From Candidatus Latescibacterota bacterium (GTDB lineage: Bacteria; Latescibacterota; UBA2968; UBA8231): 64,000 bases of DNA. Positions 39,488 through 59,722 of the stretch are shown here, piece by piece. Location of the stretch: positions 1,216,001-1,280,000 of the forward strand of contig CBDCDC010000002.1 of assembly GCA_965215195.1 (NCBI GenBank), in the 5' to 3' direction. A model generated the notes under the pieces. It worked only from the letters and a program-made list of their open reading frames with translations, did not search any database and had not been told where the DNA came from. Within the stretch, counting starts at the first letter, position 1. Each line of letters starts with the position of its first letter. A program made the position numbers and the translations under genes.

Positions 39488-39628
39488 ATGACCGCTCTGC
39501 ACAAACCCGAACGCGCCACCTACGGCCAAGCCGTCGAGGCCCAAGCGGAATATCGCTTCACCATCTGCTCCAGCGATCCCAAGGCAGCTCTCTGCTGGGA
39601 TGATGGAGACCTCCTGTGCTGCCCGTAA
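39488..39628 (+). CDS. Cys-rich precursor peptide 1: MTALHKPERATYGQAVEAQ-AEYRFTICSSDPKAALCWDDGDLLCCP (46 aa)
   Basis: Hand translation; AAGGA RBS; leader shared with three paralogs. Confidence 0.88.
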   Translation: MTALHKPERATYGQAVEAQAEYRFTICSSDPKAALCWDDGDLLCCP

Positions 39629-39855
39629 GAAGGCCTTGGCGTCCTCACTTGGTTCGATAGAACCTCTCACTTGGGAGGTAGCTGAAAAATCGACCAAGCT
39701 ATGGACGGGCGGAGTGGACCAGAGGTCCTATTGACCCCGGTCCACTCCGCTTGGCTTCAGGCTCAATGATCGTGGGCCTGTAGTCTACTCCTGAGTGGGC
39801 GGCCGAGTCGGTCGCCTGCCCGCTAAATCCCAACCACATACCCAAGGAGGATGTT

Positions 39856-41030
39856 ATGAACAAGCTAAAGCATTTTATCGTGGTAGCCGGCCCTATGGTG
39901 CTGTTGGCTGGGTGCGGTGAGGACCAACTCGAAAACCGGGTGGAGATTACCCCCCGGCGGCTGACTTGGCATTCGACGAGGCAGTCATCAAGGACCGGGA
40001 CATCTACTTCCAAATGCCCGAAGACGTCGCTTTGGGGACGATCAGCTATACATTGGTAGATGCCAAGGGGGACCTCATCGTTGTGGACTCTGTTCAGTGG
40101 ACGATTTTCCAGATCAATGCGGAGGGCCAATACTTGCGGCAGATCGGCATGCGGGGAGGAGCCGAAGGCGAGTACTTTTATGTCCTCAAGATGCTACTGG
40201 CCCCCAATGACGATCTCTATATACACTGCATCGGAGAAAGCGCGAAGTATCTAGTCTTTGCCGGGGACTCATATAAGTTCAAGCGGGAGGTGCCCGACCC
40301 TAACTCCGCGCTCATTGATCATGTTGTGATTACCGAGGGAGGCAATATGTACGCCTCGCAAGTGGACGTCATTGATGGAGGCTCTGCCGGGGTGCAAGAG
40401 GATGGAGCACACGCTCTATTCCGCTTTGACGACCACTTCAATAAGGTCGCTAGCCTGTATCCGGTCGAAGACAAGCGAACAGGACGGACGTTGAACCGCT
40501 ACCACAACACAATTCTCACTCCTAGGACGGGGGGTGGCTTCTACTTCATGTATCCCACCGCCTACGATATCCATCAGTACAGCGAGCAGGGTGAGTTGGA
40601 ACAGACCCTATTTAGTACCTATTGGTCTAAGCACCGAAACGGGATCAATCCCTTGCCCGCCAGCTTGGATCCGCTCGCTTGGACTCCCAAGCACGCGGAG
40701 TGGCTTGCCGAGTACATCTTCCCTGTCCAACTTTTTGAATGTGATCCCGACTTGCTGGTACTCATGCAAGTAAGGAAGGAGGTCGACGGCGAAGTGAAAC
40801 GCTATATGAACCTCCTGTACAAGGACGGCCATTCGGTAGCCGACGGCATTAGAGTCCCCGCAAATCATAGGCTCCTGACGGTTGACGGCCGTGAGTTGTA
40901 TTTCGTGGTAGAGGGCGCGTTCGACGAGGAGACCGGCGAGGTGGGCGATCCGCATGTGGCCGTCTATCGGTTCAATGATCGCGCAGGGGCCGGCAAGTTA
41001 GCGTTCAGCCGCTCGCGGGGCGGCCAGTAG
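39856..41030 (+). pseudogene. 6-bladed beta-propeller lipoprotein 1, -1 frameshift in C6 tract (39950-39955)
   Basis: Lipobox LLAGC in 39856 frame; body continues in 39966 frame; a C7 tract restores ITPPAADLAFDE as in paralogs. Confidence 0.85.
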
Positions 41031-41046
41031 AGGAAGGGACATCACC

Positions 41047-41682
41047 ATGAATTCGCTAGCCAAAGCACTCCTGCTATTGTCCCTCGGACTCGGCTCGGTC
41101 GCCTTGGCTCTGCACCAAGACAACACCGACAGACGCGACGAGTTGGAGGCCCTTAATGAGCACCTAAAAGATTTAAAGACAGTCCAGTGGAAATACGAGG
41201 TCAACGCCGTCCTGAAGAGTAAACTACACCGCAAACTGATTGAATCGATGGAATTCGGCCGATTCACCAAATTCGACGAGTCGGCCGTTAGGGCCGACAA
41301 GCCGTTTGTCGTCGTCGTATCGACGAGCCGGACATGTGGAGCGTGCCTGTTTGCCCAACTCGACCAGTGGAAGGAGGCTATGACTCAAAGGAATGTCTCT
41401 TACGGCAAGTTGCTGCTGATCGTAGGCGACGCCAACGAGCGCATTAAGCAACAGATTGCCATAAAGCACAAGGTGGGCATCGTGCCCTTCGCCTTCACTT
41501 TCATGGCCGAGCGGGATCTTGAAGAGTTGATTTTCCAGTCGGACGACCGGTCAGCGGTGCCCGTCTCGTTTGTCGTGGACGAAGCCTTCCGTGTCCTCAA
41601 CTGGCACTATAGCGACAAAGGGGACGAAAAAGCTACGGCGCAGTGCATCCAAGACTGGCTGGACCGCTATTTCACCTCTTAA
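41047..41682 (+). CDS. Exported thioredoxin-fold (CGAC) protein, copy 1
   Basis: N-terminal hydrophobic segment, coiled coil, VVVVSTSRTCGAC, VPVSFVVD (cis-Pro loop-like). Confidence 0.75.
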   Translation: MNSLAKALLLLSLGLGSVALALHQDNTDRRDELEALNEHLKDLKTVQWKYEVNAVLKSKLHRKLIESMEFGRFTKFDESAVRADKPFVVVVSTSRTCGACLFAQLDQWKEAMTQRNVSYGKLLLIVGDANERIKQQIAIKHKVGIVPFAFTFMAERDLEELIFQSDDRSAVPVSFVVDEAFRVLNWHYSDKGDEKATAQCIQDWLDRYFTS

Positions 41683-41709
41683 ACCGCGAAGGCGACCGGG
41701 CATCTCAGT

Positions 41710-42400
41710 GGTCTTTCAATTAAATTTTTTGATTTAATCGCCTCGTTGGTCGTAAGGTGAGATTATCTCAGTCCAGTTACCAGTGCTGGCCTTGTGCCCT
41801 TTATTTATCTCTCCCAACCACCAAGTAAGGAGGGATAAAGATGAAAGAGCCAAGACCAGCGTTGGAGAATTTGTGTTGTCTCAATGCCCAATGCAAGGCT
41901 TACGGCCAACGCGGCCAAGCCAACCTGACGGTGCATAAGACCTATGGAGCCGACCGGATTCGTTATCTACGCTGTCAGCGCTGCGGGGATGAATTCAGCG
42001 AGCGAAAAGGCACGGCGTTGTTTAATTGCAAAATCCGGGAAGCGCAAGCCGTCTCGGTGATTGAGCGTCTAGATCGGGCCTGTGGCTTGAATGCCACGGC
42101 GGCCTTGGTCGGGGTATCCAAAGATGCGGTTCGCCACCTGCTTCGCGTGAGCGGACCGGTCAGCTGTCAACTGCATGACTGTCTGGTGCGTGCCTTGCAT
42201 CCGATGGCGCTCCAATTTGATGAGAAATGGGCCTATGTGGCGAAAAAACAACGACACTTGACCCCCATGGACGATCCGAGTGAACGGGGTGATTCTTAGG
42301 ATGCCAACAGTTTGGATCCGCAGAGCAAATTGCTGGTGTCGCTGGTGCCCGGTCGCCGTACGAGCACGACCCTTCATCAAGTGGTGGCGGATGCGGCGGA
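41710..42400 (+). mobile_element. IS1-family transposase remnant
   Basis: Zn-ribbon CLNAQC..RYLRCQRCG..FSE, HTH, LQFDEKWAYV; in-frame TAG at 42297; truncated at about 42400. Confidence 0.8.
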
Positions 42401-42473
42401 ACTCCGATTTCTTGTAACTCTTTGTTTATCAGTAAGTTATGATTTTGTAGATCAGTTTGGCACGGAATGTGCT
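42401..42473 (+). promoter_or_regulatory. sigma54 promoter module 4 (enhancer sites lost)
   Basis: TATCAGTAAGTTA IHF-like site and TGGCACGGAATGTGCT at 42458-42473; upstream part replaced by IS1 remnant. Confidence 0.8.
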
Positions 42474-42889
42474 ATTGCTATAGTGAGCACGAAAGTCAGC
42501 CGTTGTTGGCCCCACCCGCTACGGCGCAGAGGCCGACGGGCAGGCTTTCCATCCACCCAATAAGAGGAGGTGAAAATGAACCGCGTTATCAACATCCGCT
42601 CTCGCCTGCTTGGAGAACAGCTCGCTTTCGTGCCGCGCTGGTAGAGCCACCGTCCAGGTCGAGAAGACCTGTAGCCATGACCCTGCACTCACTCGTGTGC
42701 ATCAAGCCACGACCCGGCCCTCGAAGCCGCGCAGGCATTTGCCGCTGTCGGCTGCTGTTCCTTCTCGCGCCATGACACCGCCTTTACCGGCACCACTTAG
42801 GGCTATCCGTCAGGAGGCCCTGTCGCGACGCCTTTGGCGTCACCCTTTGGTTCGATTGAACCAGTCACTTACTACCAAGGAGCCTACGC

Positions 42890-43030
42890 ATGATCGCTCT
42901 GCACAAACCCGAACGCGCCACCTACGGCCAAGCCGTCGAGGCCCAGCACAACGAATACAACGTGGTCAGGTGCGACCATACGGGCGTCGTCTGCTTGGGG
43001 AACTCAGGCAGCTATCGCTGCTGCATTTAA
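42890..43030 (+). CDS. Cys-rich precursor peptide 2: MIALHKPERATYGQAVEAQ-HNEYNVVRCDHTGVVCLGNSGSYRCCI (46 aa)
   Basis: Hand translation; AAGGAG RBS. Confidence 0.88.
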   Translation: MIALHKPERATYGQAVEAQHNEYNVVRCDHTGVVCLGNSGSYRCCI

Positions 43031-43276
43031 GGACGCCCTTCTGCGGCAGCCTCGGCTGACATCGGTTCGACAGCACCCTACTTGAGGGGTTACTGAAAAA
43101 TCAGTCAGCCATTGATCGGCGAGTGGACCATGGGTTCCATTGACCCCGGTCCACTCCGCCGGTCTTCGGGTGCTGAACGGTTGAAGATAGTTCCAGTAGC
43201 TACTCCTTGATGCACGGCCACATCCAGTCCGTGAATCTGCCAAGATGCAACCCCAACTCTCCACAAGGAGGATGTT

Positions 43277-44386
43277 ATGAAAAATTTGCTGCTGTTCATC
43301 GTGGTTTTCGGCCCTGTGGTGCTGTTGGCCGGGTGCGGCGATGATCCACCTAAACGCCGAGTGGAGATCACCCCTCCGGTGGCCGAACTCACGTTCGACG
43401 AGGCGTTAGTCAAGGATAGGGAAATCCACTTCCAAATGCCCGAGGGTATCGTTTTGGGCACGATCGGGGACCTCGTGGTCGATTCCAAGGGCAACCTCAT
43501 CATCTTAGATTTTGCCCAAGGGACGGTTTTCCTAGCCGATGCCGAAGGCAACTATCTGCGGCAGATCGGAGCGCGGGGAGGGGCTGAGGGCGAGTACCTT
43601 TCTATTATCGAGGTACTGCTAGCCCCAAATGACGATCTCTATACTTGGAGTATGGGAGAAGGCCTCAAGTACATGGTCTTTTCCGGCGGCTCTTATGAGT
43701 TTAAGAGAGAGGTTCCAGATCCTAATTCCCAGTACATCGATCATCTCGTGGTCTCCGCCGGCGGCCACATTTATGCCTCGCAAGTGGATTTGCGAATGGA
43801 CGGTATCCACGCCCTGTTCCGCTTTGACGACCACTTCAAGGTGATCGGCAACCTGTATCCGGTCGAAGACCAAAGGACCGCGACGGCCCTGCACCGCTTC
43901 CACAACACCATCCTCACCCCCAAGACCGGCGGTGGCTTCTACTTCATGTATCCGACCACCTACGAGATTCACCAGTACAGCGAGCAGGGCGAGTTGGAAC
44001 AGACCCTGTTTAGCACCTACCAGTCCAAGCACCGGGACGGCATCAAGCCCTTTCCCGCCGACTTAGACCCGTATGGTTGGAACCCCAAAATCGAGGCGTG
44101 GTTCGCGGAGCACATTGTCCGTCACCGACTTTTCGAATGCGGTTCCGACTTGCTGGTACTTGTGCAATACAGGCGGGAGGTTGGCAACAAGTACGAGTAC
44201 TATCTAAACTTCTTGTACAAGGACGGCCATTCGGTGGCCGATGGGATTCGTGTGCCCGCCAAGCACATACCGCTGACGGTCAACGGCTCTGAGTTGTACT
44301 TTGTGGTTGAGAGTGAGTTCAATGAAGCGACGGGCGAGGCGGACGATCCGCACATAGCCGTCTATCGGCTCAAGTCGGCTAGGTAG
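43277..44386 (+). CDS. 6-bladed beta-propeller lipoprotein 2
   Basis: AAGGAGG RBS, lipobox LLAGC, NHL-like VDSKGNLIILD and YLRQIGARGGAEGEY. Confidence 0.88.
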   Translation: MKNLLLFIVVFGPVVLLAGCGDDPPKRRVEITPPVAELTFDEALVKDREIHFQMPEGIVLGTIGDLVVDSKGNLIILDFAQGTVFLADAEGNYLRQIGARGGAEGEYLSIIEVLLAPNDDLYTWSMGEGLKYMVFSGGSYEFKREVPDPNSQYIDHLVVSAGGHIYASQVDLRMDGIHALFRFDDHFKVIGNLYPVEDQRTATALHRFHNTILTPKTGGGFYFMYPTTYEIHQYSEQGELEQTLFSTYQSKHRDGIKPFPADLDPYGWNPKIEAWFAEHIVRHRLFECGSDLLVLVQYRREVGNKYEYYLNFLYKDGHSVADGIRVPAKHIPLTVNGSELYFVVESEFNEATGEADDPHIAVYRLKSAR

Positions 44387-44511: not shown

Positions 44512-45498
44512 ATGAACAAACGGATGCTTTTTATCGCAATGGCTGGCATAGGGCTGCTTGGGGTTGACCCGGCCAACGCCGAGGCCGCAGCGGAACGAGG
44601 GGCCGACGAGCGCTTCACCGGCAAGGAGCAGGTCGTTGCGCTGCCGGGCGGTACCCAGATGACGTTTGTGTGGATTGAGCCGGGGACGTTTCAGATGGGA
44701 GCGCAGCTTCCAGAAGACGAGTCGCTGAAAGAGTTAGAAAGAACCGTGCGTTACGTTGGTTCCCTGCCGGTGCATGAGGTGGAGATTAGTGCGGGGTTCT
44801 GGTTGAGTAAGTATGTGGTTACGCAGGAGCAGTGGGAAGCAATAATGGGAACCACGCCTTGGCGCGACGAAGACAACATCGACCGAGAGTTGGTGCAGTC
44901 GAATCCGGCGCATCCGGCCGTGTATATTTCTTGGCACGACGCCCAAGCGTTGATACACCAGCTCAATAGCGCCGCCGGGGAGGACGTGTATCGGTTGCCG
45001 ACCGAGGCCGAGTGGGAGTATGCCTGCCGGGCAGGCACTTCGACCCTGTGGTCGTTTGGCAACGAAGAGGGCGCGTTCTCTACCTTGTGGACGTATCACG
45101 CGGATAAGGGTTCGCTCGCCCACTATGCGTGGTATCGGAACAATACGTTGGGTAGGAATGAGGAGTATGCTCATGCGGTGGGACAGCATCGTCCGAATGC
45201 GTGGGGCTTACATGATATGCACGGCAATGTGTGGGAGTGGGTACAGGACTGGTATGACATCGACTATTACAAGCATTCGCCGCGGGTGGATCCTTTAGGC
45301 CCTCCATCCGGCTCTTTAGGCTCTGGTCCTAACTCTTTACGCTCTAAGATGAGGGACGACGCTACCGACTCTTTACGCGTCATGCGGGGGGGGGACTTTA
45401 TCACCCCTGTCATATACACACAATCGGCGTACCGCATATTCAAAGAGCCTTACGAAGGTTACGCTACTATTAGTGTACGCCTTTTGAAGATGCGTTGA
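44512..45498 (+). CDS. FGE-sulfatase (SUMF1) domain protein, secreted
   Basis: Signal peptide; PGTFQMG, YRLPTEAEWEYACRAG, PNAWGLHDMHGNVWEW, RVMRGG. Confidence 0.92.
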   Translation: MNKRMLFIAMAGIGLLGVDPANAEAAAERGADERFTGKEQVVALPGGTQMTFVWIEPGTFQMGAQLPEDESLKELERTVRYVGSLPVHEVEISAGFWLSKYVVTQEQWEAIMGTTPWRDEDNIDRELVQSNPAHPAVYISWHDAQALIHQLNSAAGEDVYRLPTEAEWEYACRAGTSTLWSFGNEEGAFSTLWTYHADKGSLAHYAWYRNNTLGRNEEYAHAVGQHRPNAWGLHDMHGNVWEWVQDWYDIDYYKHSPRVDPLGPPSGSLGSGPNSLRSKMRDDATDSLRVMRGGDFITPVIYTQSAYRIFKEPYEGYATISVRLLKMR

Positions 45499-45670: not shown

Positions 45671-46306
45671 ATGAATTCGCTAGCAAAAGCGCTTCTGGTG
45701 CTGTCTTTCGGCCTCGGCTCGGTCGCCTTAGCCCTGCACCAAGACAACGTCGACAGACGCGACGAGTTGGAGACCCTCAACGAGCGGCTGGAACACTTGG
45801 AGACCGTCCAATGGAACTACGAGGTCAATGCCGCCCTCAAGGAGAAGCTACACCGCAAGCTGATCGAATCGGTGGACTTGGGCCGATTCGCCAAGTTCGA
45901 CGAGTCAGCCGCCGGGGATGGCCAGCCGTTTGTCGTCGTCGTATCGACGAGCCGGACATGTGGAGCATGCCTGTTTACCCAACTCGCTCAGTGGAGGCAG
46001 GCGATGGCGCACAGGGGCATCTCCCACGGCAAGCTACTGCTGGTCGTAGGCGACGCCAACGAGCACATCAAGCACCAAATCGCCATAAAGAGCAAAGTGG
46101 ACATCGTGCCGTTTGCCTTCACCTTCGTGGCCGAGCGAGAGCTCCAAGCACTGCTGTTTCAGTCCGAGGCCCGGTCGTCGGTGCCGGTCTCGTTTGTCGT
46201 GGACGACGCCTTTCATGTCCTCAACTGGCACTATAGCGACAAAGGAGACGAAGAAGCGACAGAGCAATGTATCCAAGATTGGCTGGAACAGTACTTCACT
46301 TCGTAA
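45671..46306 (+). CDS. Exported thioredoxin-fold (CGAC) protein, copy 2
   Basis: Close paralog of 41047-41682. Confidence 0.75.
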   Translation: MNSLAKALLVLSFGLGSVALALHQDNVDRRDELETLNERLEHLETVQWNYEVNAALKEKLHRKLIESVDLGRFAKFDESAAGDGQPFVVVVSTSRTCGACLFTQLAQWRQAMAHRGISHGKLLLVVGDANEHIKHQIAIKSKVDIVPFAFTFVAERELQALLFQSEARSSVPVSFVVDDAFHVLNWHYSDKGDEEATEQCIQDWLEQYFTS

Positions 46307-46326: not shown

Positions 46327-48093
46327 TTAGTTTCCCGCTGCGTCGTCTTCTACGGCTTGGTAGGCGACCAGCTCCCAGCCGTGAAACACAACGGCCAAGC
46401 CAATATGCCGCACCGACGGGGAGCGGTGCGGCAAGGACGAATCCGCCAAGTAGCCGCGCACCTGAAGCACGGCCTCCTGCACCTTGTCCGCCACAACGGA
46501 TTCGTCGAGGGTTTCGCTTCGTTTCAGGTACTTCAATTCCAACACATAGCCGAACCGCACGTCAGGGTACTGGGCGACAAACGGCTCCAAGTACAAATCC
46601 GCGTACCCCTTGTTCAGTTCATACTCCGAGTGCAGTAGAAAGTGGTTCACCATACTCAAGTGGGCGGCGACAAAGCCGTGGATCACCTTCTCGCCATCCA
46701 TGTAGTCGCGGATGCCGGTTTGCTCGGCGAGGGCATCGCGCAAAAAATCGAGAGGCGGCTGCCAAGCGCCACCGTAGGCCATCTGGCGCATCAGGCGGGA
46801 GAAGGTGTACACATCGACGGAGAACACCCCCACATCGTCGTAGGCATCGCGCAGGTAGCCGTACATCAGCCGCTTGACCGTTTGATTGGGAATGCCCAGC
46901 CGAGGCACCCCGTGCGCCACGGCGCGAATGCTGAGCAGGCCGAAGTAATACAGCAGGGACAGGAAGTTTTCGCGTTGGTCTAACTGTTCTAAGGGAAAGC
47001 TGACTTGGATAGTGCTTTCGGCGGTCTGCTCGCCGATGATGTGGCGCAGCAGGTCGAAGTTGCCGTTGAATTGCCGGTTGACCGTCAGCAGGTGGCGCAG
47101 CTTGCCGTAGTCGATGCGCACGTTGGTGTCGATCAACTCCCGCGGTCCCCGTTTGTTTGGCACGGATTTGTGTAAAAAGTAGAGGACCATGTCCGTGTTG
47201 TAGAGGTCACCCTCGATCTCCTCGGCGAAGCGATAGCCGTTGTACCACTCGCGCATCACCTCCAGCGCGGCTTCGACATCCTGATTGAACACGCCGTAAT
47301 CACGGTATAGCTCCAGCACCTCTCGCACCTCGGCCTCGGTGAAGCCGAGCATGTCGTTGAACTCTGGTTCCAAGCTGATGTTGCTGCCGATGTTAAAGCC
47401 GCTGGTGACGTCGTCCATGGTGATCGGCGACACCCCGGTGATGAACAACCGCTCCAAGCCGCCGCCGCTCTGCTCCGCGCCGACCTTGAGCGTGGCGAAG
47501 AAATTGCGATAAAAGCCGCCGCCGTGGGTGAAGGACTGGTACGCGGCCTCGCCGTGATAAGCCAGCACGGTGTTGGCGAAGTTGTCGTACTCGTCGATGA
47601 GCACGCATAGCCGAATGCCGTGGTCGCCAGCGTACAGGAACAGCTCGTTGAGCTGCCCAGTGACCGAGTCCGACGCACGGATGTATCGCCTCGCGGCCTC
47701 GGGAAACAAATCCGCATTGCGCTCCAGCGCATACCGGACCACCAGTTGACAATACTCTTCAAAGTGATGTTCGAGGGTTTCCAGCGCGTTTTTGAACGCC
47801 GAAAAGTTGAAACGCAGGACGACGTAGCGATGGCGGTTTTCGGTCGGCTGCTGCCCCAAGTCCGTACCGCCGAAGACGGTCTCGAATTCGTCGGCGCGGT
47901 TGCGGTCGTAGTAGTTCTCTAGCAAGGACACCCAGCAGGTCTTGCCAAAGCGTCGGGGACGAATGAGAAAGACGTAGCGTTCGTCTTCTAAGGCGTGGAC
48001 GAAGCGGGTCTTATCGACGTAGAGGCGGTTTTCCAAGCGGATGGCCCGAAAATCAGCCCAACCGTAGGGAATGCGGGGGTAGGATGCGGCCAT
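46327..48093 (-). CDS. AAA-ATPase-like / PD-(D/E)XK nuclease protein, copy 2
   Basis: Same motifs as copy 1; AGGAG RBS before MAASYPRIPYG. Confidence 0.9.
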   Translation of the reverse strand: MAASYPRIPYGWADFRAIRLENRLYVDKTRFVHALEDERYVFLIRPRRFGKTCWVSLLENYYDRNRADEFETVFGGTDLGQQPTENRHRYVVLRFNFSAFKNALETLEHHFEEYCQLVVRYALERNADLFPEAARRYIRASDSVTGQLNELFLYAGDHGIRLCVLIDEYDNFANTVLAYHGEAAYQSFTHGGGFYRNFFATLKVGAEQSGGGLERLFITGVSPITMDDVTSGFNIGSNISLEPEFNDMLGFTEAEVREVLELYRDYGVFNQDVEAALEVMREWYNGYRFAEEIEGDLYNTDMVLYFLHKSVPNKRGPRELIDTNVRIDYGKLRHLLTVNRQFNGNFDLLRHIIGEQTAESTIQVSFPLEQLDQRENFLSLLYYFGLLSIRAVAHGVPRLGIPNQTVKRLMYGYLRDAYDDVGVFSVDVYTFSRLMRQMAYGGAWQPPLDFLRDALAEQTGIRDYMDGEKVIHGFVAAHLSMVNHFLLHSEYELNKGYADLYLEPFVAQYPDVRFGYVLELKYLKRSETLDESVVADKVQEAVLQVRGYLADSSLPHRSPSVRHIGLAVVFHGWELVAYQAVEDDAAGN

Positions 48094-48195
48094 GGCGACT
48101 CCTAAGACGAATGAACGAGACTGAGCGTAACGATTGAGCAAAACAAGCGCAACGTACGCACGATTGGCCACATCGGCGATTCCCTTTTAACGCAC

Positions 48196-48388
48196 TACGT
48201 CCCTTTTGACGCACTTGCTCTAAACTATTGTAAAAATTTGAATTAGGCATCAAATAGCTCATCAGGTGCGTCGAAAGGGTGCAAAGAAAGCGCGATTCGG
48301 CGTCTTGTATGAAATACTCCAATTTCTTGTAACTCTTTGTATAACAATCAATTACGGATTTTCGGATCAGTTTGGCACGGAATGTGCT
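48196..48388 (+). promoter_or_regulatory. sigma54 promoter module 5
   Basis: Two enhancer palindromes (48196, 48267); TGGCACGGAATGTGCT at 48373-48388. Confidence 0.88.
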
Positions 48389-48797
48389 TATATAGTAGGT
48401 GAGCACGAAAGTAAGCCGTTGTTGGTCTCAGACGCTACGGCGCAGAGGCCGACGGGCAGGCTTTCCATTCACCCCATAAGAGGAGGGAATAATGAACCGC
48501 TTTATCAACATCCGCTCTCGCCTGCTTGGAGAAGGTCGGCTTTCGTGCCGCGCTGGTAGAGCCACCGTCAAGGTCGAGAAGACCTGTAGCCATGACCCTG
48601 CACAAACCCGTGATCTACGGCTTGGCCATTGAAGCCGCGCAGGCATTTGCCGTTGTCGGCTGCTTTCCTTCTCGCGCTATGACGACACCTTTATCGTCAC
48701 TGCGTAGGACTATCCGTCAGGAAGTCCTTTCGAGACGCTCTTGGCGTCACCATTTGGTTCAATAGAACCAGTCACTTATTACTCAAGGAGTATATCC

Positions 48798-48938
48798 ATG
48801 ACCGCTCTGCACAAACCCGAACGCGCCACCTACGACCAAGCCGTTGAGGCCCAGCGGGAATTCAACAAGATCGAGATCATTGAGGATCCTCCTGGGCTTC
48901 ATTGCACTGGAATCGGCTCCCTCATCTGCTGCTGCTAA
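48798..48938 (+). CDS. Cys-rich precursor peptide 3: MTALHKPERATYDQAVEAQ-REFNKIEIIEDPPGLHCTGIGSLICCC (46 aa)
   Basis: AAGGAG RBS; C-terminal part of track ORF 48741-48938. Confidence 0.88.
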   Translation: MTALHKPERATYDQAVEAQREFNKIEIIEDPPGLHCTGIGSLICCC

Positions 48939-49099
48939 GGGGGCTCTGCTCTTCCCACTTGGTTCGATAGATCCGGACTCCTCACTTGAGGGGGTCTGAA
49001 CAATCGACCCAGCCGTAGATGAGACGAGTGGACCGAGGCCCATGGGCTTCGGTCCACTCCGTCGGACTTCAACGCCAACTCTCATCAGGAGGAATAGTT

Positions 49100-50316: not shown

Positions 50317-50958
50317 ATGAATGCCACTAAGCTAGCAAAAGTGCTTCTGCTGTTGTCCCTCGGCCTCGGCTCGGTCGCCTTGGCCCTCCACCAAGACAAC
50401 ACCGACAGACGCGACGAGTTGGGCGCACTTAATCAAAGGCTGAAACACTTGGAAACCGTCCAATGGAACTACGAGATCAACGCCGCCCTCAAGGAGAAAC
50501 TACACCGCAAGCTGATCCAATCGGTGGACTTAGGCCGATTCGCCAAGTTCGATGAGTCGGCTGCCGGGGACGGTAAACCCTTTGTCGTCGTCGTATCGAC
50601 GAGTCGGACGTGTGGAGCATGCCTGTTTACCCAACTTGACCAGTGGAAACAGGCTATGACTCAAAGGGGCGTCTCCCACGGCAAGCTGCTGCTGGTCCTA
50701 GGCGACGCCAACGAGCCCCTCAAGCACCAAATCGCCCTCAAGCACAAGGTCGGCATCGTGCCCTTCGCCTTCACCTTCGTGGCTGAGCAGCAACTCGATG
50801 CGCTGCTGTTCCAGTCCGATGCCCGGTCGTCGGTGCCGGTCTCGTTTGTCGTGGACGACGCCTTTCATGTCCTCAACTGGCACTATAGCGACAAAGGAGA
50901 CGAAGAAGCGACAGAGCAATGTATCCAAGATTGGCTGGACCGGTACTTCACCTCGTAA
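50317..50958 (+). CDS. Exported thioredoxin-fold (CGAC) protein, copy 3
   Basis: Close paralog of 41047-41682. Confidence 0.75.
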   Translation: MNATKLAKVLLLLSLGLGSVALALHQDNTDRRDELGALNQRLKHLETVQWNYEINAALKEKLHRKLIQSVDLGRFAKFDESAAGDGKPFVVVVSTSRTCGACLFTQLDQWKQAMTQRGVSHGKLLLVLGDANEPLKHQIALKHKVGIVPFAFTFVAEQQLDALLFQSDARSSVPVSFVVDDAFHVLNWHYSDKGDEEATEQCIQDWLDRYFTS

Positions 50959-51285
50959 ACGGCGATTCCGCGACGCCATTAGTGTCAACCCTTAGTTCGA
51001 TAGAACCCCTCACTATCAATTGACCTAGCCATTGACCGGCGAGTGGACCGTGGATTTCGTTGAACACGGTCCGCTTTGCTAGTCATCAATTCCTTCCTCC
51101 CATCATCACCCGCCCCACTCAACATGACAGGGGCAGGTGCGTTCCTTCCTTGTCATGCTGAGCGAAGTACTATGCGTACCGTCAGTTGTGAATGACGTAG
51201 GATCGCAATAGCTGCTATGTCGATGCCTCGGCGATGAAATCGCAGTCGGCCAGCGGTCTGTAGCGGCGATCCCCTTTTAACGCAC

Positions 51286-51498
51286 TACGTCCCTTTTGAC
51301 GCACTACGTCCCTTTTGACGCACTTTCTCTAACCTGTTGTAAATAAAGCCAGATAGAAGCAATATAGAACATTAGGTGCGTCGAAAGGGTGCAGTTGAAG
51401 CGCGATTCGGCGTTTGGTTTGCGATGCCCCAATTTTTTGTAACTCTCTGTATAACAATTAGTTATGGTCTTGTAGATCAGCTTGGCACGGAATCTGCT
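51286..51498 (+). promoter_or_regulatory. sigma54 promoter module 6 (distal enhancer tandemly duplicated)
   Basis: GCACTACGTCCCTTTTGAC x2; TGCGTCGAAAGGGTGCA at 51377; TGGCACGGAATCTGCT at 51483-51498. Confidence 0.88.
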
Positions 51499-51707: not shown

Positions 51708-52424
51708 ATGAAAAACATGGCGCGGAACATCTCCCTGCTCGTCAATGCGTTCCTCCTGCTACTCATTGCCACTGGCACCCTGTGGGCACTGAAAGAGCTG
51801 CACCGGCAAGACCCGACCGAGGCCGAGCGGCTGGTGAAGGAGAAGACCTACTTCAAGGACTACCTCAACAGCAGCGTCCAAGCTTCGACCAAGCTGGGCC
51901 TGAAATTCCCCGTCATTGAGATGACAGATATCAAAGGCCGGCCTTTGAGCACGGATTTCTCCAAGACCCAAAAGGGAGGAATCGTCGTCGTGCTCAGCCA
52001 ACTGGCGTGCCAGCCCTGCCTCAAGCCGCAGATGCAGATCCTGCAGCACATCTACGAGCGTCTCGCCGATCCGGAGGCGATGCCCATTTACTGCATCGCC
52101 AGAATGAGCGAGCGGAAGTTTTCGGACTATGTGCGGACGTTCCAGATCACTTTTCCGGTTGCGTCGGACACGACCGGGTACTTCAACGAGACGCCTTTTG
52201 GCGAACCGACCCCGGCCGTATTTGTAATTGACGAGAACAACACGGTCGTCAACGTCCATATCCCCGTGCAGGAGAAGCCGCACCTTTCGGTCATTTTCTA
52301 CAACGAGTTGAAGCCTTGGTTCGACTTGGCCAAGCCGCTCGCTTTCAAGTTCAAAGGCGTGAAGTACTACGACGTCATCACCAACAAGGCCGATTTGAGC
52401 TCGGTCAAGCACTTGCTCTACTGA
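51708..52424 (+). CDS. Membrane-anchored redoxin/TlpA-like protein (CQPC)
   Basis: N-terminal TM, FPVIEMTDIKG, ACQPC, ITFPVASD, TPAVFVIDENN. Confidence 0.78.
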   Translation: MKNMARNISLLVNAFLLLLIATGTLWALKELHRQDPTEAERLVKEKTYFKDYLNSSVQASTKLGLKFPVIEMTDIKGRPLSTDFSKTQKGGIVVVLSQLACQPCLKPQMQILQHIYERLADPEAMPIYCIARMSERKFSDYVRTFQITFPVASDTTGYFNETPFGEPTPAVFVIDENNTVVNVHIPVQEKPHLSVIFYNELKPWFDLAKPLAFKFKGVKYYDVITNKADLSSVKHLLY

Positions 52425-52455: not shown

Positions 52456-54186
52456 ATGATAGTCAAGGAATTTGCCATGCGCTTCGCCCGGTACATCAAA
52501 CCGTACTGGTGGCAAAGTTCAATCGTATTCGCCTTCATGGTCTTGGCAACGGCCAGTTCGCTCGCCTTCCCCTATATCCTGATGGTCCTCATCGACGAGG
52601 CCCTGCCCGACGAGGACTACTATTTATTGGGCATCCTGCTGGCCACGCTATTCGGTATCATCGTCTTGAACATAATCAGCGTTTTTATTGCCGAGTATCT
52701 GTATCGCTGGGTCGGCAACCTCGTCGTGTTTGAGATGCGGAGCGAGTTGTTCAGCCACCTGCTGCGCCTGCCGCTAAGTTTCTTCAAACGCAACAAGACC
52801 GGGGATATCGCTCACCGGCTCAACAACGATGTGCAGATCGTCCAGAAAACGCTCACTTCCGGCGTACTGAAGCTCATCAACAGCGTGCTGACTTTGGTCA
52901 GTTTGGGGGCGGTGCTGATATGGCTAGACGCTCCCCTTTTCTTTGGCCTGAGCCTGCTCGTGCCCTGCTTCATCGTGAACCTCAAGTACTTCCAGCCCAA
53001 AGTAGGCAAGGTGGCCGAGGCAACCCAACACAAGACTTCGGATATACTGGGGTTTTTTATCGAGCGTTTCGACAACATCAAACTCGTCCAGTCGTACAAC
53101 ACATACCGACACGAGAGCGACAAGTTGGGCCGACGACAGAGTGAGTTGTTCGATCTGGAAATGCGTAGCACTGCGTTGAATCTTTCCGCTGGTTCCATCG
53201 CGTCCTTTATCATGTCCTTGGCTCCTGTTGTCATCCTCGGTTGGGGAGGGCATCAAGTCATGCAGGGCGCACTCGGCTTGGGGGCGCTAATCGCCTTTTT
53301 CCAATACTTCATGCGCATTTTCGGACCCTTGGAGAGCCTGAATCAACTGTACATAGATTGCGTCCGGGCGTCGGTTTCTCTGCGGCGAATTGTGGAATTC
53401 ATGGACGTACCGGCGGAGGTTGACGCAGAGCCGGAGCGGGCCAAACCCTTCTCGTTCAAGAATAAGATAGTGTTCAAAGGCGTGGATTTTGCCTACAACG
53501 GGCACCCTGTACTCAGCCGTTTTGATTTGGAGATTGAAAAGGGCAAGACCTACGCGCTCGTCGGGGCGAGCGGTTGCGGCAAAAGCACGGTTGTCGATCT
53601 GTTGTGCCGTTTTTACCAGCCGCAAAAAGGCGAGATCGCCATAGACGACGCGCCTTGCCGGGCCTTTGGTCTGGGCAAGTACCGGGACCGCATCGGCTTG
53701 GTGTCGCAAGAAGCGCAACTCTTCCGCGATTCGGTGCTCGAAAACATACGCTATGGCCGGTTGGAAAGTTCCAAAGAAGAGATCGAACGCGCGGCCGAGG
53801 AACTCGATATCAACGGTGCAGCCATCCACGCGTCCGAGGACTCCTTGGCGACGGTATGCGACTCCAAAGCCAACCTGTCGGGTGGACAGAAACAGCGGAT
53901 AGCCCTAGCGAGGGCCGTGCTGAAAAACCCCGAGATCATCGTACTGGACGAGGCGACTTCAGCTCTCGACTCGGAGAGCGAGGAGAAGCTGTTGCGCCGG
54001 CTCAAGGGCCAAGCCGACGACAAGACGGTCATCATCGTCAGCCACCGGCTCAGTGCCGTTAGGGAGGTCGATGAGATCGTCTGCATGGACGAGGGGAAAA
54101 TTGTCGAGAAAGGCACTCATGCCGAATTGATGGAGAAAAAAGGCCACTATTGGGAACTGTTCAAAACCCAGATTGCGAACAATTAA
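52456..54186 (+). CDS. ABC exporter, fused permease-ATPase (no C39 peptidase domain)
   Basis: TM domain, GASGCGKST, LSGGQKQRIALARA, LDEATSALD, SHRLS. Confidence 0.95.
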   Translation: MIVKEFAMRFARYIKPYWWQSSIVFAFMVLATASSLAFPYILMVLIDEALPDEDYYLLGILLATLFGIIVLNIISVFIAEYLYRWVGNLVVFEMRSELFSHLLRLPLSFFKRNKTGDIAHRLNNDVQIVQKTLTSGVLKLINSVLTLVSLGAVLIWLDAPLFFGLSLLVPCFIVNLKYFQPKVGKVAEATQHKTSDILGFFIERFDNIKLVQSYNTYRHESDKLGRRQSELFDLEMRSTALNLSAGSIASFIMSLAPVVILGWGGHQVMQGALGLGALIAFFQYFMRIFGPLESLNQLYIDCVRASVSLRRIVEFMDVPAEVDAEPERAKPFSFKNKIVFKGVDFAYNGHPVLSRFDLEIEKGKTYALVGASGCGKSTVVDLLCRFYQPQKGEIAIDDAPCRAFGLGKYRDRIGLVSQEAQLFRDSVLENIRYGRLESSKEEIERAAEELDINGAAIHASEDSLATVCDSKANLSGGQKQRIALARAVLKNPEIIVLDEATSALDSESEEKLLRRLKGQADDKTVIIVSHRLSAVREVDEIVCMDEGKIVEKGTHAELMEKKGHYWELFKTQIANN

Positions 54187-54202
54187 AAAAAGGGAGACCA
54201 GG

Positions 54203-56140: not shown

Positions 56141-56174
56141 TGATGCTTCGGCTAGCTTTCGCTAGCACATGTCG

Positions 56175-56415: not shown

Positions 56416-56482
56416 AAAAATACTACACGACGGAGCCACCATTCAAGATGGAATCCAACGGATGTGCCGGAGGTTATAGACC

Positions 56483-56770: not shown

Positions 56771-56780
56771 CCGTCTAGGC

Positions 56781-56903
56781 CGCGTCATACGGGGCGGCGA
56801 CTTTATGGCTCCTGTCATATACCTGCGGTCAGCGAGCCGCAGGGCTAGTGAACCCGACGAACGTGATTATAGCACTGGTGTGCGCCTTTTGAAGATGCGT
56901 TGA
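56781..56903 (+). pseudogene. FGE-sulfatase gene 3' remnant
   Basis: RVIRGGDFMAPVIY...TGVRLLKMR* parallels the end of 44512-45498, including the downstream UTR. Confidence 0.75.
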
Positions 56904-56969
56904 GCTTTGTGCTCGTTACAAGGATGAGGAGGAGGCATTCGGCCGCTAGTAGGGAAGGAGATCATTGCC

Positions 56970-57099
56970 ATGAATGCCGCTAAGGTGCCCGTTTCGTTTG
57001 TCGTGGACGACGCCTACTGGCACTATAGCGACAAAGGAGACGAAGAGGCGACGGAGCAGTGTATCCAAGACTGGCTGAACCGGTACTTCACTTCGTAAA
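56970..57099 (+). pseudogene. Internally deleted CGAC thioredoxin-like gene
   Basis: MNAAK joined to VPVSFVVDDA..WHYSDKGDEEATEQCIQDWLNRYFTS*. Confidence 0.8.
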
Positions 57100-57121
57100 C
57101 GGCGATTCCGCAACCCGCAGA

Positions 57122-58882
57122 TTAGTGTCCCGCCGCATCGTCCACCGCTTGATACGCAACCATCTCCCAGCCGTGAAACACCACCGCCAAGCCAATATGC
57201 CGCACCGACGGGTGGCGGCGGCGCAGGGACGGGTCTGCCAAATAGCCGCGCACCTGAAGCACGGCCTCCTGCACCTTGTCCGCCACAACGGATTCGTCGA
57301 GCGACTCGCTTCGTTTCACATACTTCAGTTCCAACACATAGCCGAAACCCACGTCAGGGTATTGGGCGAGGAACGGCTCCAAATACAAATCCGCGTACCC
57401 CTTGTTCAGTTCGTACTCCGAGTGCAGTAGAAACTGATCCACCAGGCTCAAGTGGGCGGCGACAAAACCGTGAATCACCTTCTCGCCATCCATGTAGTCG
57501 CGGATGCCGGTTTGCTCGGCGAGGGCATCGCGCAAAAAATCCAAGGCCGGCCGCCAAGCGCCGTCGTAGGCCATCTGGCGCATCAGACGGGAGAAGGTGT
57601 ACCCATCGACGGAGAACACGTCCACATCGTCGTAGGCATCGCGCAGGTAGCCGTACATTAGCCGCTTGACCGTTTGATTGGGAATGCCCAGCCGGGGCAC
57701 TCCGTGCGCCACGGCGCGAATGCTGAGCAGGCCGAAGTAATACAGCAGGGACAGGAAGTTTTCGCGTTGGTCTAACTGTTCTAGCGGAAAACTGATTTGA
57801 ATGTCACTCTCGGCGGTCTGCTCGCCGATGATGTGGCGCAGCAGGTCGAAGTTGCCGTTGAGTTGGCGGTTGACCGTCAGCAGGTGGCGCAACTTGCCGT
57901 AGTCGATGCGCACGTTGGTGTCGAGCAATTCCCGCGGTCCCCGTTTGTTCGGCATGGATTTGTGTAAAAAGTAGAGGACCATGTCGGTGTTGTAGAGGTC
58001 GCCCTCGGCCTCATCGGCGAAGCGATAGCCGTTGTACCACTCGCGCATCACCGCCAGCACGGCTTCGACATCCTGATTGAACACGCCGCAGTCGCGGTAT
58101 AGCTCCAGCACCTCCCGCACCTCGGCCTCGGTGAAGCCGAGCATGTTGTTGAACTCTGGTTCCAAGCTGATGTTGCTGCCGATATTGAAGCCGCTGGTGA
58201 CGTCGTCCATGGTAATCGGCGACACGCCGGTGATGAACAACCGCTCCAAGCCGCCGCTTCGCCCGGCTCCGGCCTTCAGCACGGCAAAAAAATTGCGATA
58301 GAAACCACCACCGTGGGTGAAGGACTGGTAGGCTTCGGCCCCGCGATGCGCCAGCACGGTGTTGGCAAAATTGTCGTACTCGTCGATGAGCACATACAGC
58401 GGAATGCCATGGTCACCCGCGTACAGAAACAGCGCGGCGAGCTTGGCGTCAATGGAGGGCGGCGAGAGAATGCGTTGTCTCGCCTCTTGGGGAAACAGAT
58501 CTCGATTGCGCCTGAGTGCGTGGTCGAGTTCCAAGTGACAGTACATCTCAAAGCGTTCCCGCAGGGTTTCTAAGGTGTCATCGAACGCCGAAAAGTCAAA
58601 GCGCAGGACGACGTAGCGATGGCGGTTTTCCGTCGGCTGCCGCCCCAAATACGTGCCGCCGAAGATAGCCTCAAATTCATCGGCGCGGGTGCGGTCGTAG
58701 TAGTTTTCCAGCAGGGACACCCAGCAGGACTTGCCAAAGCGACGCGGACGAATCAGAAAGACGTAGCGTTCCTCTTCTAAGGCGTGGACAAAGCGGGTCT
58801 TATCGACGTAGAGGCGGTTTTCCAAGCGGATGGCGCGGAAATCAGCCCAACCGTAGGGAATGCGCGGGTAGGATGCGGCCAT
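57122..58882 (-). CDS. AAA-ATPase-like / PD-(D/E)XK nuclease protein, copy 3
   Basis: RPRRFGKS, LIDEYD, GYADL..ELKY; 586 aa. Confidence 0.9.
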   Translation of the reverse strand: MAASYPRIPYGWADFRAIRLENRLYVDKTRFVHALEEERYVFLIRPRRFGKSCWVSLLENYYDRTRADEFEAIFGGTYLGRQPTENRHRYVVLRFDFSAFDDTLETLRERFEMYCHLELDHALRRNRDLFPQEARQRILSPPSIDAKLAALFLYAGDHGIPLYVLIDEYDNFANTVLAHRGAEAYQSFTHGGGFYRNFFAVLKAGAGRSGGLERLFITGVSPITMDDVTSGFNIGSNISLEPEFNNMLGFTEAEVREVLELYRDCGVFNQDVEAVLAVMREWYNGYRFADEAEGDLYNTDMVLYFLHKSMPNKRGPRELLDTNVRIDYGKLRHLLTVNRQLNGNFDLLRHIIGEQTAESDIQISFPLEQLDQRENFLSLLYYFGLLSIRAVAHGVPRLGIPNQTVKRLMYGYLRDAYDDVDVFSVDGYTFSRLMRQMAYDGAWRPALDFLRDALAEQTGIRDYMDGEKVIHGFVAAHLSLVDQFLLHSEYELNKGYADLYLEPFLAQYPDVGFGYVLELKYVKRSESLDESVVADKVQEAVLQVRGYLADPSLRRRHPSVRHIGLAVVFHGWEMVAYQAVDDAAGH

Positions 58883-58984
58883 GGCGGCTCCTCAAACGAG
58901 GGGATGGTCCTGAGCGTAACGATTGAGCGCAACCAGCGCAACGTGTGCATGGCTGCCGCAGCGGCGAGCGCACTTTTAACGCAC

Positions 58985-59177
58985 TACGTCCCTTTTGACG
59001 CACTTGATCTAACCTATTGTAAAGACGTGAGATAGGCGCAAAGTGGAGCATTAGGTGCGTCGAAAGGGTGCAATCACAGCGCGATTCATCATCTTGTATG
59101 AAATACTCCGATTTCTTGTAACTATTTGTCTATCAGTCAGTTATGTCTTTTTAAGTCGGTTTGGCACGGAATGTGCT
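58985..59177 (+). promoter_or_regulatory. sigma54 promoter module 7
   Basis: Enhancers at 58985 and 59056; TATCAGTCAGTTA; TGGCACGGAATGTGCT at 59162-59177. Confidence 0.88.
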
Positions 59178-59590
59178 TATATAGTAGGTGAGCACGAAAG
59201 TAAGCCGTTGTTGGTCTCAGACGCTACGGCGCAGAGACCGACGGGCAGGCTTTCCATCCACCCCATAAGAGGAGGGAACAATGAACCGCTTTTATCAACA
59301 TCCGCTCTCGCCTGCTTGGACAACGGCTCGCTCTCGTGCTGCGCTGGTAGAGCCATCGTCAAAGTCGAGAAGGTATGTAGCCATGAGCCTGCACAAGTCC
59401 GTGATCTACGGCCCGGCCATGCGAAGCCGCGCAGGCATTTGCCGCTGTCGGCTGCTGTTCCTTCTCGCGCCATGACAACGCCTTTACCGGCATCACTTAG
59501 GGCTACCCATCAGGAGGCCCTGTCGCGACGCCCTTGGCGTCACCACTTGGTTCGATAGAACCACCTACTTATTACTCAAGGAGCATAGCT

Positions 59591-59722
59591 ATGATCGCTC
59601 TGCACAAGCCCGAACGCGCCACCTACGGCCAAGCCGTCGAGGCCCAGTATGAATACCAGAACATGGTATGCGACGCATATGATGCTAGGTGCTGGGATCC
59701 GGGGCACAGAAGGTGCTGCTAG
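59591..59722 (+). CDS. Cys-rich precursor peptide 4: MIALHKPERATYGQAVEAQ-YEYQNMVCDAYDARCWDPGHRRCC (43 aa)
   Basis: AAGGAG RBS; C-terminal part of track ORF 59534-59722. Confidence 0.88.
   Translation: MIALHKPERATYGQAVEAQYEYQNMVCDAYDARCWDPGHRRCC

Follow-up and report, generated by a model that had tools for sequence, protein, structure and literature searches.

Conserved-leader, four-cysteine precursor peptides paired with propeller lipoprotein genes in a genomic island of Candidatus Latescibacterota

We analysed a window of 64,000 nucleotides (nt) from a Candidatus Latescibacterota genome (assembly GCA_965215195.1, contig CBDCDC010000002.1, positions 1,216,001 to 1,280,000 of the forward strand), in which an island carries four small genes for cysteine-rich peptides; all positions below are those of the window unless a contig or locus is named (Table 1). 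Each peptide gene lies in a cassette with a recurring order: a sigma-54-type promoter, a 5' region of about 410 nt, the peptide gene, a strong hairpin, a gene for an NHL/DUF5128 propeller lipoprotein and, often, genes for an FGE-like enzyme and/or a thioredoxin-like (Trx-like) protein with a CxxC motif. The cassettes share the island with genes of a candidate maturation and export module, with two operons for RND pumps, and with genes for a solute-binding protein and a sensor kinase.

The four open reading frames (ORFs) translate exactly as given in a first-pass annotation of this DNA, and its description of them holds. They share a 19-residue leader, M[TI]ALHKPERATY[GD]QAVEAQ, followed by cores of 24-27 residues with four cysteines each, spaced C..C..CC in three peptides and C..CCC in one. 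Each ATG is preceded at 7-8 nt by a good ribosome-binding site (AAGGAA in copy 1, AAGGAG in copies 2-4), and both a Sec signal and a double-glycine motif are absent, the leader ending in VEAQ. These four are the only copies of the peptide gene in the genome (6.13 Mb). We compared them with eight genes from five related genomes. Across the 12 genes, the leader has synonymous variants at 12 of its 19 codons and residue changes at only five positions; by the Nei-Gojobori method its non-synonymous (pN) and synonymous (pS) differences are 0.04 and 0.29, compared with 0.46 and 0.57 for the whole core. Among the window copies, leader pS is only 0.11, the propellers having about 0.5. All 12 loci examined have an intact ORF preceded by AAGGAG or AAGGAA. 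Intactness is not universal, as one copy in genome G025 has decayed, with leader residues and cysteines lost, and some database members are truncated or frame-shifted. Peptide 1 and its orthologue in a sister species differ at four bases, two of which alter leader residues and two of which are silent; the core protein is identical, with one synonymous change in its codons. Searches of Pfam (E up to 10) and NCBIfam (E up to 1) gave no meaningful match to an already characterised family for any of the four peptides, and none matched PF14055 (NVEALA) at E up to 10. The pattern, in which leader and cysteine framework are constrained and the loops are not, is the signature of a translated peptide. 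From this comparison of sequences we conclude that the four ORFs are genuine leader-plus-core precursor genes, as first proposed.

The cores do not diverge almost completely, as the first-pass annotation had it. In 19 aligned members, E-[YF] two residues past the leader, the cysteine positions and one glycine are fixed, in the order x-E-Y/F ... C ... C ... G ... C-C, and the loops alone vary. The seven scaffold columns (E, Y/F, C, C, G, C, C) have a pN of 0.05, whereas the loops reach a pN of 0.64 and a pS of 0.61, both saturated. This conserved-scaffold pattern is far beyond chance. At the DNA level, the window copies are 0.84-0.97 identical through the last leader codon and 0.35-0.55 identical starting at the first core codon. 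Viewed over the whole cassette, identity among the four copies is 0.83-0.92 in the 5' region plus leader, 0.35-0.55 in the core and downstream spacer, and 0.66-0.84 again in the propeller gene. The constraint on the leader that was expected at first pass is thus borne out; the diversifying selection that was expected with it is not, since dN/dS in the loops is about 1 and saturated.

Copy 3 also varies within the population. When contigs of four public runs were compared with it, runs X5 and X6 had the window's allele and run X2 a different one; long pieces are missing from parts of the stretch, and the gaps were given no weight. Between 48809 and 49229 the X2 contig shows 21 differences, and the 18 that are listed all fall at 48845-48921. 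These 18 substitutions affect 15 codons, giving 12 residue changes and three silent ones with every cysteine codon kept. Seventeen of them are in the core-coding part, where 12 of 27 codons differ non-synonymously and two synonymously, and one is synonymous in leader codon 16. The roughly 300 nt downstream contain none of the listed changes and at most the three unlisted differences. With differences at synonymous as well as non-synonymous sites and no more than three changes in the flank, the X2 variant looks like a diverged core allele that was swapped in between flanks that are nearly identical, rather than the result of point-by-point selection.

We also considered a diversity-generating retroelement, which is unlikely: the X2 substitutions are not specific to adenine but involve all four starting bases, and no reverse transcriptase gene is nearby, the two RVT_1 matches in the genome (C2:200788 and C2:298818) lying about 0.9-1.0 Mb from the window. 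In runs X2, X5 and X9, contigs join positions near 51393-51414 back to about 48303-48305, some 3.1 kb back. Such a join is expected if an extra cassette follows cassette 3 in other populations, given that the redoxin gene is preceded by a repeat of the cassette upstream region.

The most consistent partner of the peptides, which the first-pass annotation missed, is the propeller lipoprotein. A propeller gene lies 3' of all 12 intact peptide genes examined, and the decayed G025 copy is likewise followed by one. The four propellers of the window are of the six-bladed NHL type, about 370 residues long, with an LLAGC lipobox and 66-69% mutual identity, and all exceed the Pfam gathering score for PF17170 (DUF5128; 25.7-35.6 bits versus 22.9). 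A profile of the family matches the NHL domains of TRIM2, TRIM3, TRIM71 and Brat in the PDB (E 7e-13 to 7e-08). Selection on the propellers is purifying throughout (omega 0.07-0.39 in 15-codon windows) and their pS is about 0.5; the cassettes are therefore old duplicates. A word-based search returned 79 propeller clusters, all at least 54% identical, and no more distant relatives; one metagenomic protein, P0052, is a propeller fused to an FGE-like enzyme. Three cassettes end in a Trx-like protein of 211-213 residues with an N-terminal hydrophobic anchor, an invariant CGAC and 77-79% identity, for which Pfam, NCBIfam and the PDB gave no match. The signal-peptide part of propeller 1 (39856-39966) is out of frame with its body at a C-run near 39950, which may be a homopolymer assembly error or a real frameshift; the orthologue in genome G002 is intact.

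The cassettes and the candidate module carry common control sequences. The genome has eight copies of the motif TTGGCACGGAATNTGC, which we take to match the -24/-12 pattern of sigma-54 promoters. Seven of them are in the island, preceding the four peptide genes, the redoxin-ABC-subtilase operon and the two RND operons. A 14-nt activator-site motif, CCCTTTYRACGCAC, has 14 matches in the window where 0.17 are expected, with one to three direct copies and one inverted copy 106-107 nt upstream at six of the seven island promoters. Cassette 2 has no CCCTTTYRACGCAC motif and an IS1 remnant upstream. By alignment, the region before the redoxin gene and those before cassettes 1, 3 and 4 have a common architecture. 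The eighth copy of TTGGCACGGAATNTGC (C2:2461239) was set aside, having no CCCTTTYRACGCAC motif and unrelated genes downstream. The genome has rpoN, and the kinase gene at the window's end is followed, just beyond it, by a gene for an NtrC-type sigma-54 activator, which presumably binds the CCCTTTYRACGCAC motif. A kinase orthologue of at least 82% identity is found in only 10 of the 31 genomes of the window's genus, all of them island holders; the others have only a paralogue of 43-46% identity. This shared control, also overlooked at first pass, is the strongest link between the cassettes and the module.

The S8 protease that the first-pass annotation had pointed to is a cytoplasmic QhpE-like subtilase in an operon with a cassette-type sigma-54-type promoter and upstream sites. 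Its N-terminal half has DSG, HGT and GTSFAAP motifs and no signal peptide, and matches QhpE (NCBIfam NF049966) with an E of 1.3e-41 and 142 bits against a cut-off of 165. The C-terminal half is a TIGR04066/DUF1611-like P-loop domain (E 4.4e-38, positions 2-360/361) that scores 131-133 bits against a cut-off of 200. In the ABC exporter of the same operon, the ABC_membrane domain begins at residue 23 of 576 and a C39 peptidase domain is absent, while the redoxin combines an N-terminal hydrophobic anchor with CQPC. Upstream of the cassettes, the acyl carrier protein (ACP) carries a GADS motif and is accompanied by a 352-residue BtrH_N-like protein. Five of ten members of the latter's family match PF14399 (BtrH_N; best E 5.2e-06), and the window copy does not. 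Ser24, His126 and Asp134 are invariant in the family alignment and could form a catalytic triad. In BtrH-type papain-fold enzymes, acyl donors come from carrier proteins (PMC12865890). The BtrH_N-like gene (37566-38624) is only 33% identical to its counterparts at L026:8099-9139 and L027:8189-9217, where the neighbouring genes are 76-94% identical. The second RND pump is interrupted by an in-frame TAG (33874-33876) that is directly followed by an ATG, leaving ORFs of 499 and 552 residues.

In four genomes, the cassettes sit between the BtrH_N-like gene and the redoxin-ABC-subtilase operon. The fusion of subtilase and TIGR04066 domain is far more widespread: 89 of the 168 genomes of the phylum have it, some with as many as seven matches. 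Sixteen other fusion loci have an ABC exporter, usually a carrier protein, often a BtrH_N-like gene and sometimes MauE or a redoxin; the two of them scanned with Pfam also have CAAX-type proteases or a glycosyltransferase. None of the 16 holds a propeller or a peptide of this family. Because the module is phylum-wide while these other loci lack both, the cassettes look like lineage-specific cargo within it. A crude screen of limited regions at 22 further paralogous-module loci, for small cysteine-containing ORFs with a ribosome-binding site, gave no convincing precursor.

Table 1. Genes and control elements of the island and its borders, in order of position in the window.
Feature	Position	Strand	Remarks
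RND operon 1 control	activator motif 24526, promoter 24633	+	
Membrane-fusion protein	24670-25863	+	HlyD_D23 4.5e-31
RND pump 1	25863-29009	+	ACR_tran 2.2e-214
AAA-ATPase_like/PDDEXK_9 genes	29018-30883, 46327-48171, 57122-58882	-	paralogues between operons
RND operon 2 control	activator motif 31897, promoter 32003	+	
RND pump 2 in two ORFs	32377-33876, 33877-35535	+	split by in-frame TAG
Acyl carrier protein	36319-36669	+	PP-binding 8.4e-07; AsbD-type match, TIGR04069 weakly
Rhodanese	36666-37142	+	Rhodanese 1.2e-15
MauE/DoxX membrane protein	37097-37567	+	MauE 3e-29
BtrH_N-like protein, 352 residues	37566-38624	+	family matches to PF14399
Cassette 1 control	38888-39487	+	activator sites 38888, 38953; promoter 39059-39075; 5' region
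Precursor peptide 1	39488-39628	+	46 residues
Propeller lipoprotein 1	39856-41030	+	DUF5128 8.1e-06; signal-peptide part out of frame
Trx-like protein 1, membrane-anchored, CGAC	41047-41682	+	invariant C97, G98, A99, C100
Cassette 2 promoter and 5' region	42457-42889	+	
Precursor peptide 2	42890-43030	+	46 residues
Propeller lipoprotein 2	43277-44386	+	
Exported FGE-sulfatase-like protein (cassette 2)	44512-45498	+	PF03781 9.9e-43, PvdO-like 4.5e-26
Trx-like protein 2	45671-46306	+	
Cassette 3 activator sites, promoter (48372), 5' region	48182-48797	+	
Precursor peptide 3	48798-48938	+	46 residues; population variant of core exists
Propeller lipoprotein 3	49100-50281	+	start inferred at MNKR methionine
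Trx-like protein 3	50317-50958	+	
Redoxin-ABC-subtilase operon control	activator sites 51272-51389, promoter 51482	+	
Membrane-anchored redoxin, CQPC, ResA-like	51708-52424	+	
ABC exporter without peptidase domain	52456-54186	+	
Subtilase fused to TIGR04066/DUF1611 domain, 655 residues	54173-56140	+	
Cassette 4 activator sites, promoter (59161), 5' region	58971-59590	+	
Precursor peptide 4	59591-59722	+	43 residues
Propeller lipoprotein 4	59934-61049	+	start inferred at MNKR methionine
Family-5 solute-binding protein	61228-62817	+	
dCache-HAMP-PAS sensor histidine kinase	62821 onward, past window end	+	
TTGGTTCRATAGAWCC hairpin motif sites	39443/39649, 42847, 48754/48959, 59547/59759, 50992		
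Post-peptide stem-loops	39712-39747, 43121-43156, 49026-49059, ~59805-59850		

The peptide family is tiny and confined to one genus of Candidatus Latescibacterota. Among 5.8 billion proteins, a word-based search turned up 10 other clusters, 11 in all. A profile search of 1.84 billion cluster representatives returned 12 proteins at E up to 0.001. One of these (E 4.3e-04) is an unrelated repeat protein; the other 11 belong to the family, and four of them are truncated or frame-shifted. The hosts of the family members are Candidatus Latescibacterota metagenome-assembled genomes. Of 61 related genomes, eight have peptide matches at E < 1e-5, and all eight are among the 31 that belong to the window's genus; the other 30 genomes have none. 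The propeller family is likewise restricted, being present in nine of the 168 Latescibacterota genomes: the eight peptide-bearing ones and G008, which has two propeller-FGE pairs with the promoter kept and the peptide gene deleted. The Trx-like family is found, partly as fragments, in eight of the 168, namely seven peptide-bearing genomes and G008, with G025 lacking it. Because these genomes are close kin, the co-occurrence counts are not independent events.

The 5' region that precedes each peptide gene is itself conserved (0.83-0.92 among the four copies), above the level of the propeller coding sequence. It contains an upstream ORF that starts with MNR... behind a GGAGG (39179-39454, 42467-42775, 48492-48765 and 59281-59475). 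The start and the GGAGG are kept in all 12 copies, but we rejected a conserved protein, since frame and length (22-140 residues) differ among them. Inside this ORF lies a frameshifted leader-like relic, MTLHK..IYGPAIEAAQ, and in the database proteins P0020 and P0024 the upstream ORF runs in frame into the peptide. Rfam identified only a tRNA at 1-69 of the window and nothing in 38800-39700. RNAalifold, run on the 12 copies of the 5' region, gave 91 pairs, 10 with two-sided change, and a covariation term of -0.93 kcal/mol, and we do not propose a structured RNA on this basis. A 16-nt hairpin motif, TTGGTTCRATAGAWCC, has nine matches where 0.04 are expected, one being the reverse-strand reading of the copy-2 site. 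Peptide genes 1, 3 and 4 each have one copy some 45 nt upstream of the ATG and another 21-37 nt downstream of the stop codon; peptide gene 2 has the upstream copy only. Direct repeats that bracket the peptide gene in this way could make it prone to exchange or to the kind of loss seen in G008. In addition, a very stable, conserved stem-loop without a U-tract lies 80-100 nt after each peptide stop (z-scores -3.7 to -5.2) and may be a transcript-stabilising or attenuating element between precursor and propeller.

The AAA-ATPase_like/PDDEXK_9 paralogues recur at the same places in related genomes with 77-92% identity and may serve as recombination substrates. An IS1-family transposase remnant (41841-42299, E 4.6e-08) between cassettes 1 and 2 and a 44-residue remnant of a Trx-like gene (56976-57095) after the subtilase gene are traces of cassette turnover. 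Positions 1-24400 hold housekeeping genes, including a tRNA (1-69) and genes for biotin carboxylase, ribosomal protein S1, MutS, an LptD-like protein, Maf, a RodZ-like protein and PriA, and this left part of the window also encodes a 490-residue ankyrin-repeat protein (15514-16986, minus strand). G+C is 0.60-0.67 in the left part versus 0.49-0.59 in the island from about 36 kb. About 8 kb past the window's end, downstream of the regulators, lies a gene for an unrelated NHL-repeat/DUF5128-like protein of 286 residues (L076:6733-7593, minus strand).

The island has parts in common with two described systems. In the CLI_3235 system (SacP23 of Paenibacillus polymyxa), a precursor with a 19-residue leader and a cysteine-rich core is encoded alongside a subtilase, a TIGR04066 protein, an ACP-related protein and an ABC transporter (PMC10731318). 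The island resembles such CLI_3235/TIGR04065-TIGR04069 loci of Firmicutes in these parts, though its TIGR04066 and TIGR04069 matches stay below the cut-offs. It differs in its phylum, in the fusion of the TIGR04066 domain to the protease, and in the addition of propeller, Trx-like, FGE, MauE and RND proteins and of sigma-54-type control. TIGR04065 matched none of the four peptides at E up to 1, its best genome-wide match (E 0.76) lying elsewhere; the ACP scores 17 bits for TIGR04069 against a cut-off of 70; and the radical SAM/SPASM family TIGR04068 has just two genome matches, at C2:434359 and C2:1462268 and thus not in the window, which score 91 and 21 bits against a cut-off of 500. The second likeness is to the maturation of quinohemoprotein amine dehydrogenase (qhp; QhpC, QhpE, QhpF and QhpB), which likewise brings together a subtilisin-like protease, a small cysteine-rich polypeptide, an ABC pump and a periplasmic beta-propeller protein. 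There, QhpE takes off the leader while the polypeptide is still in the cytoplasm, and the ABC transporter QhpF then exports it (PMC7876137). Unlike qhp, the island has no QhpD radical SAM enzyme, QhpG or heme subunit, its protease falls short of the QhpE cut-off, its propeller is of the six-bladed NHL type, and its peptide is hypervariable and multi-copy; among the scanned ORFs there were no heme or QhpC-type matches. The system belongs to neither CLI_3235 nor qhp as these are defined, having no radical SAM enzyme nearby and scores below the cut-offs. Judged by its genes, it resembles known leader-dependent peptide systems, with parts common to TIGR04066/CLI_3235 and qhp.

Other comparisons concern the layout of the cassettes. 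Prochlorosins, cyanobactins and cone-snail toxins combine a conserved leader and hypervariable cores with one shared machinery, and the island shares with them one leader for many cores and a cysteine framework that is kept while the loops vary. Unlike prochlorosins and cyanobactins, it has no lanthipeptide synthetase, and the PatA/G-type protease family TIGR03895 scores 22 bits against a cut-off of 421; unlike all three, each core has its own downstream lipoprotein gene. In blp/pln-type loci, bacteriocin-immunity cassettes are under two-component control. The island likewise has several cassettes with a common leader and promoter, one exporter, and an adjacent kinase and regulator, but its leader ends in EAQ rather than Gly-Gly, its exporter lacks a C39 domain, its activator is of the sigma-54 type, and the putative partners are propeller lipoproteins of 370 residues rather than small membrane proteins. 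We therefore rejected a double-glycine (class II) bacteriocin or microcin, given the VEAQ leader end and the exporter without a C39 peptidase. Finally, NVEALA small proteins are neighbours of DUF5128 propeller lipoproteins in Bacteroidota; the window propellers pass the Pfam DUF5128 cut-off as those lipoproteins do, whereas the peptides have no PF14055 match.

In the literature covered, which excluded supplementary tables, there was no mention of DUF5128, NVEALA or stretches of the leader, and NHL repeat, precursor peptide and RiPP (a peptide made by ribosomes and modified after translation) were not found together. The accessible part of one paper that mentions both Latescibacter and RiPPs gives antiSMASH classes only (PMC12993501). 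As far as sequence and literature searches reach, the peptides appear to belong to no catalogued family, and we found no published peptide-propeller pairing of this type. The general features of RiPP precursors are present: the precursors are short, their conserved leader is set apart from the core, and a protease and an exporter are encoded in the island. The candidate core-modifying proteins are limited to the ACP, the BtrH_N-like protein, the TIGR04066 domain and the FGE-like protein. The "new RiPP class" of the first-pass annotation goes too far, as there is no recognised modifying enzyme, the module is related to the catalogued TIGR04066/CLI_3235 systems, and it is missing or decayed at the locus in three of the eight peptide-bearing genomes.

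From the genes and these analogies we infer how the peptides may be cleaved, exported, disulfide-bonded, perhaps modified, and used. The leader would present the peptide to the subtilase/TIGR04066 enzyme, with which the carrier protein and the BtrH_N-like protein may cooperate, and an ACP-dependent modification might precede cleavage. The subtilase would then cut at or just after VEAQ in the cytoplasm, and the ABC pump would take the core to the periplasm, an order that we propose because of the QhpE/QhpF and CLI_3235 analogies. There, the CxxC proteins and MauE would form two disulfides, and one of the co-regulated RND pumps may carry the peptide further out. Outside the cytoplasm the peptide would act as a polymorphic antagonistic effector, with the propeller, with or without the FGE-like and Trx-like proteins, as its specific partner in self-protection, reception or tailoring. 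In short, the peptides would be leader-cleaved, exported, disulfide-framework effectors of the bacteriocin type with specific propeller partners, and we consider the chances that this whole path is right to be about evenly balanced.

Several observations weigh against such a path. The propellers have no hypervariable patch except one indel loop. Genome G025 has eight propeller matches versus two intact peptides, and propellers without peptides are found in G008, G018 and G025; because propellers outnumber peptides and occur alone, a strict one-to-one pairing fails. In three of the eight peptide-bearing genomes (G025, G018 and G004), peptide and propeller are intact and the redoxin-ABC-subtilase genes are absent or fragmentary at the locus. 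In G025, a single contig of 4.5 Mb, there is no intact subtilase/TIGR04066 gene anywhere, both matches being fragments; the decay of its one peptide copy could have followed the loss of the module. The nearest radical SAM match is about 0.8 Mb away, and no recognised RiPP-modifying enzyme was found. Positive selection is not demonstrated, because the synonymous and non-synonymous rates in the loops are both saturated. Lastly, the 23 public runs listed for the organism include no RNA run.

A fuller version of the effector path can also be drawn. The leader-dependent subtilase/TIGR04066 enzyme, the ACP and the BtrH-like protein as a transacylase would acylate or extend the peptides, and the two-disulfide products would be read by dedicated propellers as a combinatorial code, for self/non-self or toxin/immunity recognition, that is refreshed by core-allele swaps between identical flanks, the whole being switched on by its own sigma-54 two-component circuit. 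This would make a new class of peptide system, confined so far to Latescibacterota. We regard it as rather improbable in its entirety.

Pherotype systems typically combine conserved processing with variable mature peptides, and the peptides could instead be secreted, pherotype-like autoinducers, sensed as a whole or through some conserved portion by the flanking solute-binding protein and the Cache kinase, which would act through the NtrC-type regulator on the seven promoters; the propellers would then be receptors, sinks or modifiers. Indeed, a family-5 (peptide-type) binding protein, a Cache/HAMP/PAS kinase and a sigma-54 activator adjoin the island and are found in island-holding genomes only, and the common promoter and activator sites on the island operons, peptide genes included, are the wiring of an auto-induction loop. 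However, the binding protein and the kinase are conserved (76-92% identity across species) and the peptide loops share no sequence, so that one conserved sensor would need to read many unrelated peptides. Four different peptides per genome would also be unusual for a signal, and we think this explanation rather unlikely.

Still less probable, in our view, is that the peptide is a small periplasmic subunit or a tightly bound ligand of the propeller, for which the subtilase, ABC pump, MauE and Trx-like proteins would be assembly factors. In quinohemoprotein amine dehydrogenase and methylamine dehydrogenase (MADH), a small cysteine-rich subunit rests on a beta-propeller subunit in this way. The helper set does mirror those of these two enzymes, with a QhpE-like subtilase, an ABC exporter, MauE, a CxxC Trx-like protein and an adjacent propeller, and the propeller-FGE fusion P0052 hints at an enzymatic complex. 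The disulfide-rich small subunit of MADH and the roles of QhpE and QhpF have been described (PMC7876137). Catalytic small subunits are conserved, whereas the peptide loops are saturated with change. Tryptophan is present in only two of the four window cores, the scanned ORFs include no QhpD-type radical SAM enzyme, heme subunit or QhpG, and the propellers, of the six-bladed NHL type, occur without peptides. If the ORFs had no function and were side products of a repeated regulatory region, with conservation acting on the 5' region as DNA or RNA and not on a peptide, that would account for the higher conservation of this region than of the propeller coding sequence, for the low leader pS among the window copies and for the leader-like relic, yet this reading is very hard to reconcile with 12 leader codons that vary only synonymously across species, a Cys/E/Y-F/Gly scaffold with a pN of 0.05 beside loops at 0.64, an ORF and ribosome-binding site intact in 12 of 12 cases, and an upstream relic ORF that drifts out of frame, showing what non-coding drift looks like in the same region.

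To our knowledge, no member of the Latescibacterota has been cultured, and next to nothing is known of the chemistry that they secrete. The island provides a complete and testable parts list: four precursors, a candidate protease, an exporter, oxidoreductases, pumps, a regulator and a defined promoter. The module of subtilase/TIGR04066, ACP, BtrH_N-like protein, MauE and ABC exporter occurs in 89 of the 168 genomes of the phylum, often in multiple copies, and knowing what it does to these peptides would thus account for a system found across the phylum and also inform the uncharacterised TIGR04066 systems of Firmicutes. The layout of one peptide and one propeller, together with a core allele that varies inside nearly identical flanks, is a natural case of bacterial disulfide-scaffold diversification, and such scaffolds are useful in peptide engineering. 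If the propellers do bind the peptides specifically, this would add a new type of protein for bacteriocin immunity or peptide reception.

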